From Candidatus Termititenax sp. (GTDB lineage Bacteria; Margulisbacteria; Riflemargulisbacteria; GWF2-35-9; DYQY01), in contig DYQY01000003.1 of NCBI GenBank assembly GCA_020719045.1, positions 62,149-126,148 on the forward strand: a DNA stretch of 64,000 nucleotides, read 5' to 3'. The notes under the pieces are model-generated. The model was not told the origin of the DNA. It saw nothing but the letters and a program-made list of their open reading frames with translations, and did not search any database. This document shows positions 7,227 through 13,328 of the stretch, piece after piece. Within the stretch, counting starts at the first letter, position 1; the number at the start of each line of letters is the position of its first letter. The translations under genes and the position numbers were made by a program.

Positions 7227-8498
7227 TTAGGTTCTACGTTTACCGTGCCGAGAACGAAAGGTTTGGTTTTTAGGTGTCCAAGGTTGACGCTCTTGTTGTC
7301 CTTCTTCGTCATGAATGCCTAGATTTTCAGCTGATTCCTCTTGTGCCTCAGTTTCATGACCAAGCAATTGCACCTTCTCACCAACAGGTTCCTCACCTTG
7401 GAGTGCACTCTGTAATGCTTTTTCCGCATCTTCATAAATAATAAGCTCTCCTCTATCACTAACAATAACAATAGCATCTACCAGTACTGGCTCTTTTACT
7501 TCTCTAATTGTTTTGTGTTTGCCTTTATCCAAAGTATTTCCATCGGAACCTGCTGCAGTACTTATACCTCCAAGTATTGGTGCATAAGCCTCGGTCTTAA
7601 CTAGTTCACAAATGGATCCAGCATGACTAGTTAGCACTACAGACACACCACGTTGAAGCGTGTTTGCAAGAATAGCTGCTTCTCCTTTAGTCCATAACTC
7701 ATCACAAACAATGACTTCTGGAGTAAAGCCTACTGTAGAATTTATAAACATTGTCTTTAAATATTCTCTATCCCCTTTGCCTCTTAAAACTGTTGCTGGA
7801 CCAAGAAAAGGATGTTTGCCGGTTTCAGACATACAGGCTATTTCATCTGACGCATCTGCTACTACGACCCTTTTCATTAAATCCATACCTAAATATCTAA
7901 TAATTGACCTTAACCAAGTAGTTTTCCCTGAACCAGGCGCTCCTGCGATTAGAATCTTCTTACCTGACTTAAGCAACTCTGCTAATTTATCAATTCTAGC
8001 TACATCTATATCAATAAGACGGCTAAGCCTAAAAAACATATGGTCAGAGGATGAACCTGCAGGAATATTATCTTCAATAGATACTCTATTTAGTGTTCCT
8101 GGTATGATATGCCTAACGCCTGAAGTGAACACCTTTTCGTTATGTTCTCTTATGGTGGCGATGACTCTTTTCATTACAGTAGCAGTAGTAACGGTTTCAA
8201 AAATATGCCAAGGCAATGCTCCTTCCTTTCCTTTATTATAAAAGAAAGCGATTGCTGGCTCATTTAAGGATATCTTAATATCAATTAAATCATCCAAAAA
8301 ATTAGGACAAGTTTCTAAGATTTCATTTATCTCATCTTGTAAATCAAGTGGTAGCATACTTAATAAACTTTTTTGAAACTTTGCATTCTCCTCTACTAGC
8401 TGTGAGGCTGAAAGCTGATACCTGCTCATATTTGCTACCCTGCGCTCTACTGGGTTTTGAATTACTGCTGATTTTACTGAAACTAATTTATTAAACAT
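7227..8498 (-). CDS. SpoIIIAA/ycf45-family P-loop ATPase with a long charged C-terminal tail
   Basis: Walker A GAPGSGKTT, Walker B VIVCDE, and a downstream VVLTSHAGS block as in SpoIIIAA-like ATPases. The last ~60 aa are Glu/Gln/Arg-rich. The gene looks more G+C-rich than neighbouring genes. Confidence 0.65.
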   Translation of the reverse strand: MFNKLVSVKSAVIQNPVERRVANMSRYQLSASQLVEENAKFQKSLLSMLPLDLQDEINEILETCPNFLDDLIDIKISLNEPAIAFFYNKGKEGALPWHIFETVTTATVMKRVIATIREHNEKVFTSGVRHIIPGTLNRVSIEDNIPAGSSSDHMFFRLSRLIDIDVARIDKLAELLKSGKKILIAGAPGSGKTTWLRSIIRYLGMDLMKRVVVADASDEIACMSETGKHPFLGPATVLRGKGDREYLKTMFINSTVGFTPEVIVCDELWTKGEAAILANTLQRGVSVVLTSHAGSICELVKTEAYAPILGGISTAAGSDGNTLDKGKHKTIREVKEPVLVDAIVIVSDRGELIIYEDAEKALQSALQGEEPVGEKVQLLGHETEAQEESAENLGIHDEEGQQERQPWTPKNQTFRSRHGKRRT

Positions 8499-8592
8499 TT
8501 AATCTCCCTTAAAATAAATAATTATGTCCTGAAATAAATCAGATACAGCAAGTTATCGTCACTCAAAAAATTAAATCCATGGAATGTTTCTG

Positions 8593-9804
8593 TTATATGT
8601 TTTTACAAGCAACCCAAAGGTCAAACATATTTGCCTCATCATTTCTTCTTGCAAACAACCCACTATTATCGGACCATTCAGCCCTCATAGTTGTATTCAT
8701 GTTTCTAATTAATCCAGGAACAGCTGCTAAATTTCCTTGTTGAATTGCCTGACGAATTAAAGGGAACTCCTCTCTGCTACTTCCTTCCTCCGAAGTTCCT
8801 CTATTAAAAACTAAACTAACAATAGCCGTCTTACAGCCAGCGAGTAGTTTGTCATATGCTTCTACACCAAGCCAATTTCTTGCCATTGAAATATATTTTG
8901 GCATAGTTTTATCTTCATATATCTTCATTGCAACATCATATGGAATTTCTATATCACTAATACTAGCCAAAACGCTGGATTTGCTTTCACCTTTAATATA
9001 CCTAAGTTGAGCTTCTTTAAGTCTATTGCACTTTTCCTCTCCAATATACTCATTTAGCTCCATAACGTTATTATGCTTAAGGTCATACCCAACTCCAATT
9101 GTAATTCCACTATTAACACCGGGAACGGTTGGTTTCTTTAAGATTGCTTCATAATGTGACTTGCTCGAGATCTCAAACTTTGATATAAATTCACTCATTC
9201 CTTGTTCGCCCATTTGATTAAGAAAAGCTGGTTTTTCTTCCAATGACATATTATGTAATGAACTATCACTATATCGCTCATATAATAATCTTGAACTATC
9301 CTGTTCAGATATTTCTATTCCTAATAGAGAGGACATAGCTATTAAAGTATCAGGACCAAGCTTACCGTCTATGGCTATTGATTCTGGCATTAACGATTGA
9401 AAATGCTTTACCACATCCATTATCTGGTCATCTGTTAACCCATGTAAACCTAAAACTTTCTCAGCAAAATCCCTATTCCATGTTCTCCAATCTCCGATTT
9501 TATAACCTGAACTAACTTTCTCATCAACAAATGACTTACTAGTCTCCCCTTTAAATCCATAAGCTATATTTGCCTTAAACGCCTCAGGTGTTTTGTTGTT
9601 TTCTTTGAAATCAAGTATTTCTGGCTTAGTCTGCTCAATACTTCCAGTCGTAGGTGGCCACCCATTAGGACAAACACCGGAAAAACTTACAGGAGTACCT
9701 GTTTCAGGAAAGAACTCAGCAGAAGAATCCTTTCTCTCCACAGAGCTCACTGCAGAAAGACTAGTATTTGTGGCTGCTATATCTAATGGTAATACAAATG
9801 TCAC
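8593..9804 (-). CDS. cytoplasmic (signal-less) peptidoglycan-binding + lysozyme-like (T4/GH24-like) protein with an N-terminal domain of unknown function
   Basis: No signal peptide or TM segment. The central IDGKLGPDTLIAMSSLLG resembles the PG_binding_1 motif. The C-terminal ~170 aa (TIGVGYDL...SLVFNRGT...RR.DEANMF) align by eye with T4 lysozyme/pesticin-type muramidases. Confidence 0.55.
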   Translation of the reverse strand: MTFVLPLDIAATNTSLSAVSSVERKDSSAEFFPETGTPVSFSGVCPNGWPPTTGSIEQTKPEILDFKENNKTPEAFKANIAYGFKGETSKSFVDEKVSSGYKIGDWRTWNRDFAEKVLGLHGLTDDQIMDVVKHFQSLMPESIAIDGKLGPDTLIAMSSLLGIEISEQDSSRLLYERYSDSSLHNMSLEEKPAFLNQMGEQGMSEFISKFEISSKSHYEAILKKPTVPGVNSGITIGVGYDLKHNNVMELNEYIGEEKCNRLKEAQLRYIKGESKSSVLASISDIEIPYDVAMKIYEDKTMPKYISMARNWLGVEAYDKLLAGCKTAIVSLVFNRGTSEEGSSREEFPLIRQAIQQGNLAAVPGLIRNMNTTMRAEWSDNSGLFARRNDEANMFDLWVACKNI

Positions 9805-9888
9805 GTTAACTTCCGCCCCTACGCTGAATATACAATTACATTAGTATTAAGCCCATTATTCTTTAGATTTAAACATACGATTTTGAGT

Positions 9889-10590
9889 TTAATCTTCTAG
9901 CGCCAAATAGTTAACAGTTTTTGACCAAGAGATTAACAATACCTTTATAATTGGCCACCATAAATATAAGAAAAAAGAATATTCTAAAGCAGCAAGCTTA
10001 GCAAAAAAGAAACCTTTCTTTTTCCCTAAGATGATTATCAATGCCTGCGCAAAACTATAAAGCTCATCAAAAGCAAGATAACATCTACATAGCAAGTTAT
10101 ACTTCTCGACTTTTGTACTATCGAAATCAATAAGCAAAATGTCATTATCCAGAACATACCAATTACCATAATGAGCAATATCTCTATGGAAAAAACCCTT
10201 TTTGTTAATTATTCTAATTGAAGATATCAGCTTCTTAACAACTTGCGCTCTCTCACTATCTGTTATGCTTAACAAATACTCCTTACTATCAACCGCCTTT
10301 ACTCTTTCCATAACAATAACAGTGACATCTTCAAACCAGACTATACCAAAAATTCTAACAAAATACTTCTCAATATCCTTTTTTAGTAAATACTGGTAGT
10401 TATTAAATATCTGTTTGGCTATAAGAGGTTCAGCATAAACCTTAAGTACCAAATTATTTTTCTCATCCAAATAAATAGTAGCTTTCTTAGAACTACTAAT
10501 TTTTTCTAATTCTGAAAGTCTCTCTAGATTAAATGAAATAAAATAATCCTCAAGCTGTGTGCCTTGATTTGTAAGTTTATAGTTAGTCAT
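9889..10590 (-). CDS. small protein-kinase-like (PKL fold; Kdo-kinase/RIO-like) protein with a hydrophobic C-terminal tail
   Basis: 233 aa. A VLKVY beta3-lysine candidate, an HRDIAHYGN catalytic loop and an LIDFD (DFG-equivalent) are present. The last ~40 aa are strongly hydrophobic. The start overlaps the upstream rSAM stop (ATGA). Confidence 0.5.
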   Translation of the reverse strand: MTNYKLTNQGTQLEDYFISFNLERLSELEKISSSKKATIYLDEKNNLVLKVYAEPLIAKQIFNNYQYLLKKDIEKYFVRIFGIVWFEDVTVIVMERVKAVDSKEYLLSITDSERAQVVKKLISSIRIINKKGFFHRDIAHYGNWYVLDNDILLIDFDSTKVEKYNLLCRCYLAFDELYSFAQALIIILGKKKGFFFAKLAALEYSFFLYLWWPIIKVLLISWSKTVNYLALED

Positions 10591-12062
10591 TTAACATCTC
10601 CAAGCTTTTTAAACAATGAAGAAGCAATCAACATATGCTCGGCAAATGGTATTGACCTTTTATTATTGTCATCTTCTTTAATTTCTTTCATCGGGGAATA
10701 TGCATATAGCTCAGAAGATAATACTCCGTTTTCGTTCTTATAAAGCACCAAAGAAGATAACTCTTCTATGCCAAACTTTTCAGGATTCTTCTGCACCTCT
10801 GATCCATAACAAACATGAAAAGGACTTAGTGAGTTATCATAATAATATGGTCTAAGTTCTTTTAGAAAATTCATGGAAAGCGCTAAGTCTTCTTCTGTTT
10901 CACTTGGAAATCCCTGCATCATAAGCACTACATTCTGAATGCCGGCTATATGTGCATCAATAATATTCCTTTTCGCTGCCTCTACAACTACTGGTTTCTT
11001 CATTAACTTTAGTATTCTTGGACTTGCAGACTCTACACCCCAACATATCCACCTGCAACCAGCCTGATACATTTCCTCTAAAACAGTAGCTGTAATCTTC
11101 TCTTGAGGCATAATCATACACGCCCAATAAAACTTTCCTGCTAAAACACTATTAAGAAAACCTACATCATCAAAAGTTATCATCTGGTCAGCCAGAAACA
11201 AAAAATTCACGCCTTTTCCATAAAGAAACTCTGCCTTCTTAATAAAACCTTCCTTGTTTGCATCTACTGAAGGGAAATACATATTATTATGCGAACAAAA
11301 CGTGCATTTATTCCAATCACAGCCTCGCTTATACTGGATAGACACCACTGAGCTTGGGTTAAAATATTTATTTATCTCTATACCATCAAAGTTAGGCTCA
11401 AACACCAACCCCCTTAAAACATTATCTACCTCTTCTGTCTTAATAATCTTCCCACTGTTCCTATAAAACAAATTTGGTATTGCAAAAACATCACTGTTCT
11501 CTGCAAGCTGTTTTAACAAGCAAAACAAACTTTCCTCGCTTTCTCGATGAAGCACATAATCTATTTCTGGGAACATCATCATTAATTGCTTTTTATCTAT
11601 ATGATTAAGATACGACCCACCCAAAATAACAATCTTCTCAGGACATTTCTCTTTAATATACTTAACGAAAGCCATTGTTGAATAGAACTGAGAAGCACCA
11701 CCTCTATGATGAAAGGTCCAAGAAATACAGACGATATCTGCAAGTTTGTTTAAGTCTACCTCTAAAGGAAAATCTATTCCTGTTTCTAAATACTTAACTA
11801 GTTTCTGCTCTAACTCTACCTGAAAAACATTCCACTTCTCGGCAACCAAGTAAGAATCAGACATATAGTTATCCCACTCTCCAGAAACAATACGATTATA
11901 GGATTCTAGCCCACCAAATTGTTTATTAAATAAGTGAATATTTAAATCCAATATTTCAATATCTTTAAAGCCTCTCGCCATAAGATAACCTGCAAGTTCA
12001 CACAAATGATAAGGAATAAAAGTGGGAGAACAAAATGGCAAGAAAACTAACTGGGCTTTCAT
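10587..12062 (-). CDS. B12-binding-domain radical SAM enzyme (class B-like)
   Basis: 491 aa. An N-terminal Rossmann-like B12-binding region (KIVILGGSY) precedes a radical SAM core with cluster motif RGCDWNKCTFCS, which reads as CX4CX2C rather than CX3CX2C. The gene is 3 nt downstream of the sixA-like stop. Confidence 0.75.
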   Translation of the reverse strand: MKAQLVFLPFCSPTFIPYHLCELAGYLMARGFKDIEILDLNIHLFNKQFGGLESYNRIVSGEWDNYMSDSYLVAEKWNVFQVELEQKLVKYLETGIDFPLEVDLNKLADIVCISWTFHHRGGASQFYSTMAFVKYIKEKCPEKIVILGGSYLNHIDKKQLMMMFPEIDYVLHRESEESLFCLLKQLAENSDVFAIPNLFYRNSGKIIKTEEVDNVLRGLVFEPNFDGIEINKYFNPSSVVSIQYKRGCDWNKCTFCSHNNMYFPSVDANKEGFIKKAEFLYGKGVNFLFLADQMITFDDVGFLNSVLAGKFYWACMIMPQEKITATVLEEMYQAGCRWICWGVESASPRILKLMKKPVVVEAAKRNIIDAHIAGIQNVVLMMQGFPSETEEDLALSMNFLKELRPYYYDNSLSPFHVCYGSEVQKNPEKFGIEELSSLVLYKNENGVLSSELYAYSPMKEIKEDDNNKRSIPFAEHMLIASSLFKKLGDVK

Positions 12063-12065
12063 TTG

Positions 12066-12560
12066 TTACTTAAACATCCGAGGATAAAAATAATCTACTT
12101 TCTTACCACAACCAGAAGTAATTTCTATCCAATTATCAATCTCTAAATCGACAACAAAAACAGAACAAGTTGGGACATAGCCTATAAAAGAACCAGATAG
12201 CTCTTCGGCAAACTCAGAGATTACTGGGTTATGACCAAACAGAAAAGCAGTTTCTGCATTAATTGGAATCTGCTCGACTGCACGGTAATATGACTGCACC
12301 TCATTAAACTCATACAGACTATCCATCAACTGAATATCTTTGGAATACCCTATTTCTTTGCAAATTCTCTTAGCTGTCTTCATTGCTCTTATCGCTGGAC
12401 TAGAAATAACTACATCTGGGGCTTTATACTTTTGACTTAGCTTGCTACCTATTAACACTGAATCAGTTTTGCCTCTTTCATTTAGAGGTCTTTCAATATC
12501 ACCAAGCTCAGCATTAGCCCAATCAGACTTAGCATGTCGAATAATAAACAATCTTTTCAT
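12066..12560 (-). CDS. SixA-like phosphohistidine phosphatase (histidine phosphatase superfamily, branch 1)
   Basis: 164 aa. The N-terminal IIRHAKS (RHG-type catalytic motif) and overall length match SixA. Confidence 0.7.
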   Translation of the reverse strand: MKRLFIIRHAKSDWANAELGDIERPLNERGKTDSVLIGSKLSQKYKAPDVVISSPAIRAMKTAKRICKEIGYSKDIQLMDSLYEFNEVQSYYRAVEQIPINAETAFLFGHNPVISEFAEELSGSFIGYVPTCSVFVVDLEIDNWIEITSGCGKKVDYFYPRMFK

Positions 12561-12638
12561 ATTAATATTGTACTATTGAAAAGAATAAATATCTTCCACT
12601 CAGTTTACATTTATCTCATTTACCATGATAATAAAACC

Positions 12639-13328
12639 ATGACAAAAACAGCTATACTTATTGATGGGGGATTTTTCCTGAAAAGATACTACACGGTTTA
12701 TGGACGATCTCCAATGGATGATGGTGCTGATAAAGTAACAAAAACCATCTCTAACATCTGCTCAGAGTTCCAAAAGAAGTTTGAATTTGATTTGCTTAAG
12801 ATCTTTTACTATGACTGTTTCCCTTATATTAATAAAGAAAAAACACCTATCTCTGGCAAAGTAATTGATTTTAGTCAAACATCTTTGGCTCAGTTTAAAA
12901 TGAAACTTTTTGACGAACTTAAAAAAACAAGGAAAATGGTTTTAAGACTAGGAGAACTAAAAACAGGATACGGTTGGCTAATAAAACCTATGCTAACCAA
13001 AGGATTATTAAGTGGCGCTACAGATTTTAAATCGTTATCCGATGATGACTTTTACTTTGACCTTCAACAAAAAGGTGTTGATATGAAAATTGGATTAGAC
13101 ATATCAACATTCGCATACAAAAAACAAGTAGACCAGATAATCCTAGTAGCTGGCGATGCAGACTTTGTTCCTGCTGCAAAAGTAGCTAGAAGAGAAGGGA
13201 TTGACTTCATTCTAGATCCTATGTGGCAACATATTGATGACCAACTTTTTGAACATATTGATGGCATTTACTCCGTCTGCCCTAACCCAAATCAGAAGAA
13301 CAAAAGGGTAAACAGAAACTTACCATAA
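12639..13328 (+). CDS. NYN-domain (LabA-like PIN-type nuclease fold) protein
   Basis: AILIDGGF near the N-terminus plus GVDMKIGLDI and ILVAGDADFVPAA acidic motifs are characteristic of NYN/LabA. The start is moved to the ATG at 12639, in frame with the track ORF at 12534, whose first 35 codons overlap the sixA-like gene and look spurious. Confidence 0.7.
   Translation: MTKTAILIDGGFFLKRYYTVYGRSPMDDGADKVTKTISNICSEFQKKFEFDLLKIFYYDCFPYINKEKTPISGKVIDFSQTSLAQFKMKLFDELKKTRKMVLRLGELKTGYGWLIKPMLTKGLLSGATDFKSLSDDDFYFDLQQKGVDMKIGLDISTFAYKKQVDQIILVAGDADFVPAAKVARREGIDFILDPMWQHIDDQLFEHIDGIYSVCPNPNQKNKRVNRNLP

Follow-up and report, generated by a model that had tools for sequence, protein, structure and literature searches.

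A tightly packed phosphatase, radical SAM and mini-kinase gene trio in a Candidatus Marinamargulisbacteria genome: a probable composite of a backbone gene and an accessory two-gene module

In the 64,000-nucleotide stretch of contig DYQY01000003.1 analysed here (the window), three minus-strand genes probably form one tightly packed, co-transcribed unit of a Candidatus Marinamargulisbacteria genome. The genes encode a SixA-family histidine phosphatase (P), a class-B (cobalamin-binding-type) radical S-adenosylmethionine (SAM) enzyme (R), and a minimal protein-kinase-like protein (K). Comparison with the same chromosomal slot in sister metagenome-assembled genomes (MAGs) makes it quite probable that this unit consists of a backbone gene, P, and an accessory R-K module. 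A real functional link between R and K appears somewhat probable, and the explanation that we favour on balance is a composite unit in which backbone P is joined to an R-K module that would act on a nucleoside-type substrate. The most likely class of substrate, namely a nucleoside of tRNA or rRNA, or else a nucleotide in free form, is a tentative assignment. The features of the unit, in coordinates of the window, are as follows.

12066..12560 (-): P, SixA-family histidine phosphatase, 164 aa (Pfam His_Phos_1, sixA of NCBIfam, PDB 2rfl)
12063..12065 (-): spacer caa, 3 nt, from the P stop TAA to the R start ATG
10587..12062 (-): R, class-B (cobalamin-binding-type) radical SAM enzyme, 491 aa, unnamed subfamily
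11295..11321 (-): CX4CX2C codons (C248-x4-C253-x2-C256), the [4Fe-4S] cluster-binding motif of R
10587..10590 (-): ATGA, the R stop overlapping the K start by 4 nt, conserved in L013
9889..10590 (-): K, minimal protein-kinase-like protein (RIO/Bud32/ABC1-like), 233 aa
10441-10443 (-): codon of the beta3 Lys (K50) of K
10120..10188 (-): catalytic-loop codons H135-R-D137...N143 and metal-binding I-D155-F-D157 of K
9805..9888 (-): intergenic region 3' of K and 5' of the lysozyme-like gene, boundary of the R-K module
9844-9854: conserved motif GGGCTTAATAC in the K/lysozyme-like intergenic region
12561..12638: divergent intergenic region between P and the NYN-domain gene, 78 nt, the sole promoter space for P-R-K

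All three open reading frames (ORFs) have significant homologues and are therefore genes and not chance ORFs. The tight packing on the minus strand described in the initial annotation was confirmed by the ORF coordinates, with the junctions TAA-caa-ATG and ATGA. In ATGA the stop codon of R overlaps the start codon of K, a predicted translational coupling, and the junction sequence contains a GGAG located 9 nt upstream of the K start. No terminator-like site was found within the trio, and the promoter-like site in the 78-nt region between P and the NYN gene faces in the NYN direction only. The window as a whole has a GC content of ~34% and is gene-dense, with many short gaps and overlaps. Anywhere in its 64 kb, no tRNA genes or Rfam families at the gathering score were found, and no cobalamin or other riboswitch and no tRNA integration site were detected.

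The slot occupied by the trio was compared across Marinamargulisbacteria MAGs. It is flanked on one side by genes encoding an aminotransferase, a DUF8173 protein, a 266-aa protein, an AI-2E transporter, a 236-aa protein and the NYN protein, and on the other side by genes encoding a flavin reductase, ferritin and Mfd. The contents of the slot are listed below, with percentages of identity in parentheses.

Window: P-R-K, lysozyme-like gene, ATPase gene
L104 (Mfd 90% identical): P, lysozyme-like gene (46%), ATPase gene (80%); no R and no K
L006-L010 and L012 (Mfd 90%): P-K with an 11-nt gap, then Amidase_3 plus M15 or YkuD; no R
L103: P, then a gene for a protein of 808+ aa
L101 and L102: P, then directly the convergent flavin reductase gene, which is an empty slot
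L013/L011 (outgroup, Mfd 77%): R (56%) and K (31%), which overlap by ATGA; P is missing, and just 90 nt lie upstream of R

It was found that the P-R-K trio is present only in the window lineage. Because the same slot keeps P without R or K, P belongs to the resident backbone of the syntenic block, and it is probably co-transcribed here with R and K; the P proteins of L101 and L102 (74% identical) are the closest to that of the window. Searches with hidden Markov models (HMMs) detected no remnants of R or K in L101-L104. The motif GGGCTTAATAC, which lies 5' of the lysozyme-like gene, comes after K in the window and L013 and after P in L104, and therefore R-K is inserted exactly between the P stop and this upstream element. 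The identities suggest the tree ((window, L012, L104), L013), on which the distribution of the genes suggests that R-K is ancestral and was repeatedly lost, and that K can persist without R. As seen from these sequence comparisons, R-K looks like a dispensable accessory two-gene module heading a hypervariable slot. The initial annotation had treated the three genes as a unit, which did not survive this comparison: the trio co-occurs nowhere else that was found, and the sister MAGs have P alone, P-K, R-K or an empty slot. The gene-neighbourhood search across genomes had the same outcome, in that no relatives of K or P were present near ~90 other loci encoding relatives of R (L002-L005 and L014-L100; ~25-40% identical).

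P is assigned to the widespread, stand-alone SixA family. Its match to Pfam His_Phos_1 (E 5e-11) scored 43 bits, above the gathering score of 21.7, and the best NCBIfam match was TIGR00249 (sixA) at 51.7 bits, below the equivalog cutoff of 74.5. The best PDB hit was 2rfl, a putative SixA (E 7e-12), and alignment to 2rfl showed that the catalytic residues R8-H9, R58 and H110 are present in P. The 213 homologues obtained at E<=1e-10 are distributed over many phyla, including Bacteroidota and Campylobacterales. The call of a SixA-like enzyme with an RHG-type motif was thereby borne out. P (164 aa) shares with SixA the RHG motif and the second Arg/His, whereas no phosphorelay partner or nitrogen phosphotransferase system (PTS-Ntr) partner is evident for it.

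The cysteine motif of R reads RGC248-DWNK-C253-TF-C256, which is CX4CX2C. C248, C253 and C256 were invariant in an alignment of 14 homologues and then in one of 60. The motif aligned without gaps to that of OxsB (RGCDWNKCTFC in R, RGCDYSRCTFC in OxsB), whereas a 1-residue gap was required for alignment to the canonical-spacing motif of MgmA. A shifted canonical CX3CX2C was rejected on these grounds and because there is no alternative Cys nearby. The CX4CX2C spacing was present in 84 of the 102 R homologues from a protein search, and a metagenome scan, which was seeded with two peptide patterns, one of them built on the CX4CX2C motif, yielded more than 600 pattern matches, 469 of which were confirmed as relatives of R. 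CX4CX2C is also the published cluster motif of OxsB (PMC9204698). The initial annotation had read the spacing as CX4CX2C and as a departure from a near-universal motif. The alignment of the cluster-binding cysteines upheld the spacing as genuine; the rarity fell away in view of the OxsB motif and the 84 homologues. CX4CX2C is, in these alignments, a hallmark of a large known clade and not novel.

The assignment of R to the cobalamin-type radical SAM enzymes was supported by sequence and by fold. R passed the Radical_SAM family PF04055 (E 5e-12; 46.7 bits, relative to a gathering score of 29.5), and its best NCBIfam matches were rSAM_ocin_1, PhpK, ApyD, BchE, the MCR Gln methyltransferase and HpnJ, all of which are cobalamin-type radical SAM families. 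All named NCBIfam families scored R far below their cutoffs; for TIGR03975 (rSAM_ocin_1) the values were E 7.5e-25 and 87.5 bits relative to a cutoff of 281.85. An AlphaFold2 model of R built with 60 sequences had a predicted local distance difference test (pLDDT) score of 91.6 and a predicted template modelling (pTM) score of 0.92. Foldseek searches with this model gave TsrM, MgmA, OxsB, TokK, CysS and AprD4 as the top PDB hits (TMq 0.54-0.65), every one of them a cobalamin-dependent radical SAM enzyme, with matches that span both domains. OxsB was the best PDB hit of the R family profile (E 9e-24), covering only OxsB residues 160-495, and the single-sequence match of R to OxsB had an E value of 1.3e-3. 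A specific structural kinship of R to OxsB is not supported, in that the structures of the cobalamin-dependent enzymes TsrM, TokK and MgmA match the model about equally, with TsrM and MgmA ranked no lower than OxsB by Foldseek.

The cobalamin-domain motifs described for OxsB (PMC9204698) were used for comparison. Ser114 of R, which corresponds to the Ser of GxSxN, is invariant in a degenerate context (CISWT), and the GG motif (Gly148-Gly149) is invariant among the aligned homologues. The GE motif appears in the degenerate form Ser175-Glu176 (SE), with Glu176 conserved, and the equivalent of "GGE" is Ala291-Asp292-Gln293. In the model, the Rossmann domain of R has a helical insertion of ~60 residues (residues ~40-100), which probably explains why R has no match to the Pfam B12-binding family PF02310. 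Taking motif and modelled fold together, we place R in an unnamed class-B-type subfamily of the CX4CX2C clade, and the class call of the initial annotation is sustained by the PF04055 match and the class-B fold found by Foldseek.

Relatives of R at 34% identity or more are confined to just five other protein clusters. One of these, P0003, is a 40% identical radical SAM protein present on three contigs (L002, 8001-11438, and also L003 and L004). Located 6 nt downstream of it is a gene for a truncated QueG-like protein of 230 aa with a DUF1730 domain and one ferredoxin domain, which scored 195 bits with TIGR00276 relative to a cutoff of 200. A bona fide CmoB gene (352 bits), convergent to the QueG-like gene, flanks P0003, and L002 shares with the window no gene besides that of the radical SAM protein. 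The presence of a radical SAM protein and a second cobalamin-type protein near tRNA-U34/Q34 enzymes may be a better hint at the function of the R subfamily. A second cluster, P0004, is a 38% identical radical SAM protein from a Candidatus Margulisbacteria MAG (L005, 876-9509; L021, 7-2338). It follows by ~10 nt an Ldh_2 gene, encoding a sulfolactate/malate dehydrogenase-like protein, and a few genes upstream there are split RlmK/RlmL halves and a TrhP/UbiU-like U32 protein gene. The QueG-like, CmoB and RlmKL genes that neighbour the closest relatives of R give a hint toward tRNA or rRNA modification.

More remote CX4CX2C relatives of ~450 aa (27-28% identical) are encoded by stand-alone genes in L014-L019 (for example L014, 6001-7431, and L017, 6001-7344). 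These adjoin RNase D-like, NYN, D-aminoacyl-tRNA deacylase-type and 2'-5' RNA-ligase-like genes, and their contigs are taken to be archaeal of the DPANN type; the sole label, Nanoarchaeota, is on P0016, which lies outside these contigs. A large, uniform CX4CX2C family of ~635 aa (P0033-P0101) has the motif AHGCYWKKCSFCDVSLD. Several of its members are labelled as Pseudomonadota (for example Thauera, Nevskia and Panacagrimonas), and the source annotation is just "YgiQ" or "B12-binding radical SAM", making this another uncharacterised CX4CX2C group.

Across the four known members of the K family, which are 26-57% identical, the catalytic residues of K (K50, H135, D137, N143, D155 and D157) do not vary, and therefore K is probably catalytically active. 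The matches of K to known families were weak: Pkinase gave E 1.6e-4 and 21.6 bits, below the gathering score of 31.7, and there were weak matches to UbiB and Bud32. The L013 orthologue passed the RIO1 gathering score (25.6 relative to 22), and the relatives P0104 and P0105 were just under that of ABC1 (19-21 relative to 22.9) and had weak Bud32 matches. The best family matches of K are thus RIO1, Bud32 and ABC1, and its best PDB sequence matches are protein kinases. K is predicted to have a minimal RIO/Bud32-like kinase fold in which no catalytic residue is lost, in line with the kinase-like call made initially. An AlphaFold2 model of K was poor (pLDDT 53 with 3 sequences); Foldseek found only kinase-like folds with it, at TM 0.2-0.3 (APH(2'')-Ia and ULK2), which is a match at the superfamily level at most.

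Relatives of K were rare. A word-indexed search of 5.8 billion proteins retrieved three K-family members, and a HMMER scan of 1.84 billion cluster representatives gave 3 hits at E<=1e-10, namely the query, a fragment and the L013 type; beyond these there were only generic kinases at E>=2e-5. All K-family members that were located are from Candidatus Marinamargulisbacteria MAGs, and in these collections the family is nearly orphan. The C-terminal 70 residues of K are aromatic and amphipathic. The initial annotation had proposed that this tail tethers K to the membrane, which its hydropathy does not support: no 19-residue window of the tail reaches the hydropathy of the buried beta-strands of K, the maximum being <~1.6. 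A transmembrane anchor on K was rejected because this hydropathy is below transmembrane grade. A Kdo/WaaP kinase in a lipopolysaccharide (LPS)-core pathway was also rejected, given that none of the four K-family members had a PF06293 hit at E<=1 and that no LPS-core genes are adjacent. It had also been stated that no characterised pathway combines the three enzyme classes, and indeed no annotated pathway, Kdo/WaaP included, matches the trio.

The remaining occupants of the slot in the window, and the gene that is divergent from P, are as follows.

8593..9804 (-): 403-aa weakly lysozyme/pesticin-like protein, neighbour outside the cassette and variable-slot occupant
7227..8498 (-): 423-aa SpoIIIAA/VirB11-like P-loop ATPase, neighbour and variable-slot occupant
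12639-13328 (+): NYN-domain gene, with the true start at 12639 as judged from 229-aa orthologues

The lysozyme-like protein had sub-threshold matches to Phage_lysozyme (E 0.0097) and to Pesticin (E 0.033). The ATPase matched TIGR02858 (E 2e-10) below the cutoff and is absent from L012, L013 and L101. The hypervariable slot spans 7227-9888 in the window, 10630-13115 in L013, 5373-11830 in L012, 3085-9313 in L010 and 5017-5914 in L101. It is either empty or occupied by genes for fast-evolving, peptidoglycan-hydrolase-like proteins without obvious signal peptides, which are of the lysozyme/pesticin-like, 1220-aa Amidase_3, Peptidase_M15 and YkuD types, and it may additionally contain the ATPase gene. 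An ORF of 540-542 aa with a weak LPD3 match (E 1.3e-4) lies between NYN and P or R in L013 (6736-8358, minus strand) and in L012 (2378-4006, minus strand). Neither the window nor L101-L104 has this ORF, which is a second presence/absence polymorphism at this locus. The mechanically assigned start of the NYN ORF at 12534 extends too far and would overlap the start of the phosphatase gene. The NYN protein is 91-95% identical across MAGs in which Mfd is ~90% identical, an unusually high level of conservation for a protein without an assigned role, and it matches phrog_5783 (E 3e-78).

The system that most resembles R is OxsB of the oxetanocin-A pathway. OxsB is a cobalamin-dependent radical SAM enzyme, as R is predicted to be; CX4CX2C is present in both, and the conserved Ser, the GG motif and the (G/S)E motif of the cobalamin domain have counterparts in R that are in part degenerate. 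Reportedly, AlsB has 44% similarity to OxsB. OxsB and AlsB, both ring-contraction enzymes, are the only characterised CX4CX2C enzymes, their substrates being dAMP, dADP and dATP, on which OxsB acts together with the phosphohydrolase OxsA (PMC13331322). The phosphorylated substrates and the genetic pairing with a phosphate-handling enzyme are a further likeness to the locus described here. In contrast, the partner of OxsB is an HD phosphohydrolase, whereas the neighbours of R are a His_Phos_1 protein and a protein-kinase-like protein, and neither an HD gene nor a second, AlsA-type radical SAM gene adjoins R. R also has Thr116 as the lower-axial residue in place of Asn186 of OxsB, and His after the Cys loop in place of Arg323.

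The class-B methyltransferases (TIGR03975, PhpK, ApyD, MgmA/QCMT, TsrM, TokK and CysS) are the best HMM and fold matches of R and share with it an N-terminal Rossmann cobalamin domain and a partial TIM-barrel radical SAM domain. Many R relatives of ~500-720 aa carry the motif SRGCWWNKCTFC, and one of this group, P0029, has the Joint Genome Institute label "ribosomal peptide maturation radical SAM protein 1". The substrate or pathway genes of the class-B methyltransferase systems were not found near R, however, and every curated cutoff was missed widely. K resembles RIO, Bud32 and ABC1 (UbiB) in its length of ~230 aa, truncated C-lobe, beta3 Lys, catalytic Asp/Asn and metal-binding Asp. It differs from RIO/Bud32 in that its Asp-to-Asn spacing is one residue longer than in HRDxxxxN, in that it passes no threshold, and in the lack of a Kae1/KEOPS or ribosome-biogenesis context. 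In phage thymidine hypermodification, a kinase and a radical SAM enzyme are also encoded side by side and act on a nucleobase within a polymer, with phosphate as the activating or leaving group (PMC8989533). There, the kinase is a P-loop 5-hydroxymethyldeoxyuridine (5-hmdU) DNA kinase and the radical SAM isomerase is not of the cobalamin type; the amino-acid:DNA transferase and pyridoxal phosphate (PLP) enzymes of the phage clusters are absent from the R-K locus, and the viral collection contained no relatives of R or K.

In the composite that we favour, R would bind a [4Fe-4S] cluster, SAM and cobalamin and perform a radical methylation or rearrangement. K would use ATP to phosphorylate or otherwise activate the same substrate, or would be an ATPase partner in the manner of Bud32/RIO. 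Dephosphorylation by P, if any, would be opportunistic and not dedicated. A nucleoside-type substrate is suggested because the CX4CX2C enzymes OxsB and AlsB act on dAMP, dADP and dATP, because tRNA-34 and rRNA modification genes are enriched around the closest relatives of R, and because the nearest families of K are associated with RNA or ribonucleoprotein. The three lines are weak and independent of one another. The RNase D and D-aminoacyl-tRNA deacylase-type genes beside the remote ~450-aa relatives also speak for such a substrate, and phage thymidine hypermodification is a precedent for a kinase next to a radical SAM enzyme that acts on a nucleobase. The more specific forms of this idea, that a mini-kinase and a CX4CX2C class-B radical SAM enzyme would together act on RNA or would be an OxsB-like producer of an antiviral or antibacterial nucleotide, located in a hypervariable slot devoted to antagonism, are very doubtful.

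Several observations weigh against this composite. K is kept without R in the L012 lineage and the closest relatives of R from outside the Marinamargulisbacteria are without K, so that neither protein strictly needs the other. Just two lineages, both from one candidate class, were seen to have the R-K pair. The neighbourhoods with an RNA flavour are those of two genomes, in one of which Ldh_2 is the immediate neighbour, and we know of no characterised class-B radical SAM enzyme that acts on RNA. R has 491 aa, whereas OxsB has 744 aa, and R is without the N- and C-terminal domains I and IV of OxsB; that the model is no more similar in structure to OxsB than to TsrM, TokK or MgmA counts in the same direction. 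PF02310 matched neither R nor its five closest relatives, and cobalamin binding by R is predicted from fold and motifs only. The placement of K in a subfamily depends on weak HMM scores, its model being poor.

One alternative is that the genes have no functional link. If they were unrelated and merely packed together in a streamlined genome, R would be a stand-alone enzyme, K would have a task of its own and the overlaps would reflect compaction; the gene density and the many short gaps and overlaps of the genome fit this, as do the relatives of R that stand alone or have different neighbours and the retention of K without R. However, the R-K order and the ATGA overlap have been kept in spite of Mfd and K identities of 77% and 31%, respectively, and a reshuffled surrounding slot, and R and K are jointly missing from L101-L104, so we consider the absence of any link unlikely. 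A closer association than the one we favour would be a dedicated phospho-cycle, analogous to OxsB/OxsA, in which K phosphorylates a small molecule or peptide, R modifies the intermediate and P dephosphorylates the product. The three genes are translationally coupled or nearly so, P is catalytically intact, and OxsB, which also has CX4CX2C, depends on phosphorylated substrates and has a phosphohydrolase as its partner. Nevertheless, the restriction of the trio to the window lineage, the presence of P alone in at least three lineages and of R-K without P in L013, the membership of P in a stand-alone family, and the absence of P and K relatives from the ~90 other loci make such a cycle distinctly improbable. 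A kinase/radical SAM/phosphatase pathway of this kind had been put forward in the initial annotation and is judged unlikely, the trio not being conserved in the same slot of the sister MAGs. What stands of that proposal is the idea of a phosphorylated substrate, for which OxsB acting on dAMP, dADP and dATP with OxsA is a precedent that the initial annotation had not cited, together with a plausible functional pairing of R and K; what falls is the dedicated three-enzyme pathway.

The module might instead belong to an envelope or antagonism island. R-K would then alter a precursor of peptidoglycan or of the envelope, or would produce, much as OxsB or viperin does, a nucleoside analogue that is toxic or antiviral, and would act together with the adjacent fast-evolving peptidoglycan-hydrolase-like genes. 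Consistent with this are the presence/absence polymorphism, the low identities of K (31%) and of the lysozyme-like protein (43-46%) where Mfd is 77-90% identical, and the fact that the gene downstream of K is always peptidoglycan-hydrolase-like. Oxetanocin is both an antiviral and an antibacterial agent (PMC13331322), and there were weak PADLOC matches to PDC-M51A for R (6e-8) and, over the kinase domain, to MkoA for K (2.6e-6). The PADLOC and PHROG matches are, however, at the superfamily level only, those of PADLOC being to different systems; the viral collection contained no relatives; no integrase, repeat or tRNA signature was found at the locus, where the GC content is normal; and the hydrolase gene occurs also without R-K and is preceded by a conserved region of its own. 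Either form of the island is therefore very unlikely in our estimation. A known anti-phage defence system or a phage origin was rejected, as no single PADLOC system was matched and there were no relatives on viral contigs. [quoted passage not shown] The best NCBIfam matches of R (rSAM_ocin_1, E 7.5e-25, and ApyD) and the protein kinases among the best PDB hits of K speak for it. Against it are the score of R far below the cutoff (87.5 relative to 281.85 bits), the lack of space for a precursor-peptide ORF in the 3-nt, overlapping and 84-nt junctions, and the absence of adjacent protease, transporter and RiPP recognition element (RRE)-type genes, and we regard tailoring as highly improbable.

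Of the features that made this locus surprising at the outset, the Cys motif was already known and the three-enzyme cassette is no conserved unit. The novelty that remains is a small, uncharacterised OxsB-type CX4CX2C subfamily whose gene is translationally coupled, within one candidate class, to that of a mini-kinase from a nearly orphan family. The locus also illustrates how a backbone gene and an accessory module can together make up a tight three-gene "cassette", and it flags a chromosomal slot that is hypervariable in a marine lineage not yet cultured. If the R-K unit is real, an atypical mini-kinase would be a new type of partner for cobalamin-dependent radical SAM chemistry, and R would represent a small subfamily that is new to the CX4CX2C (OxsB-type) clade. 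If the substrate is RNA, no class-B radical SAM enzyme before R would, to our knowledge, have been shown to act on RNA.

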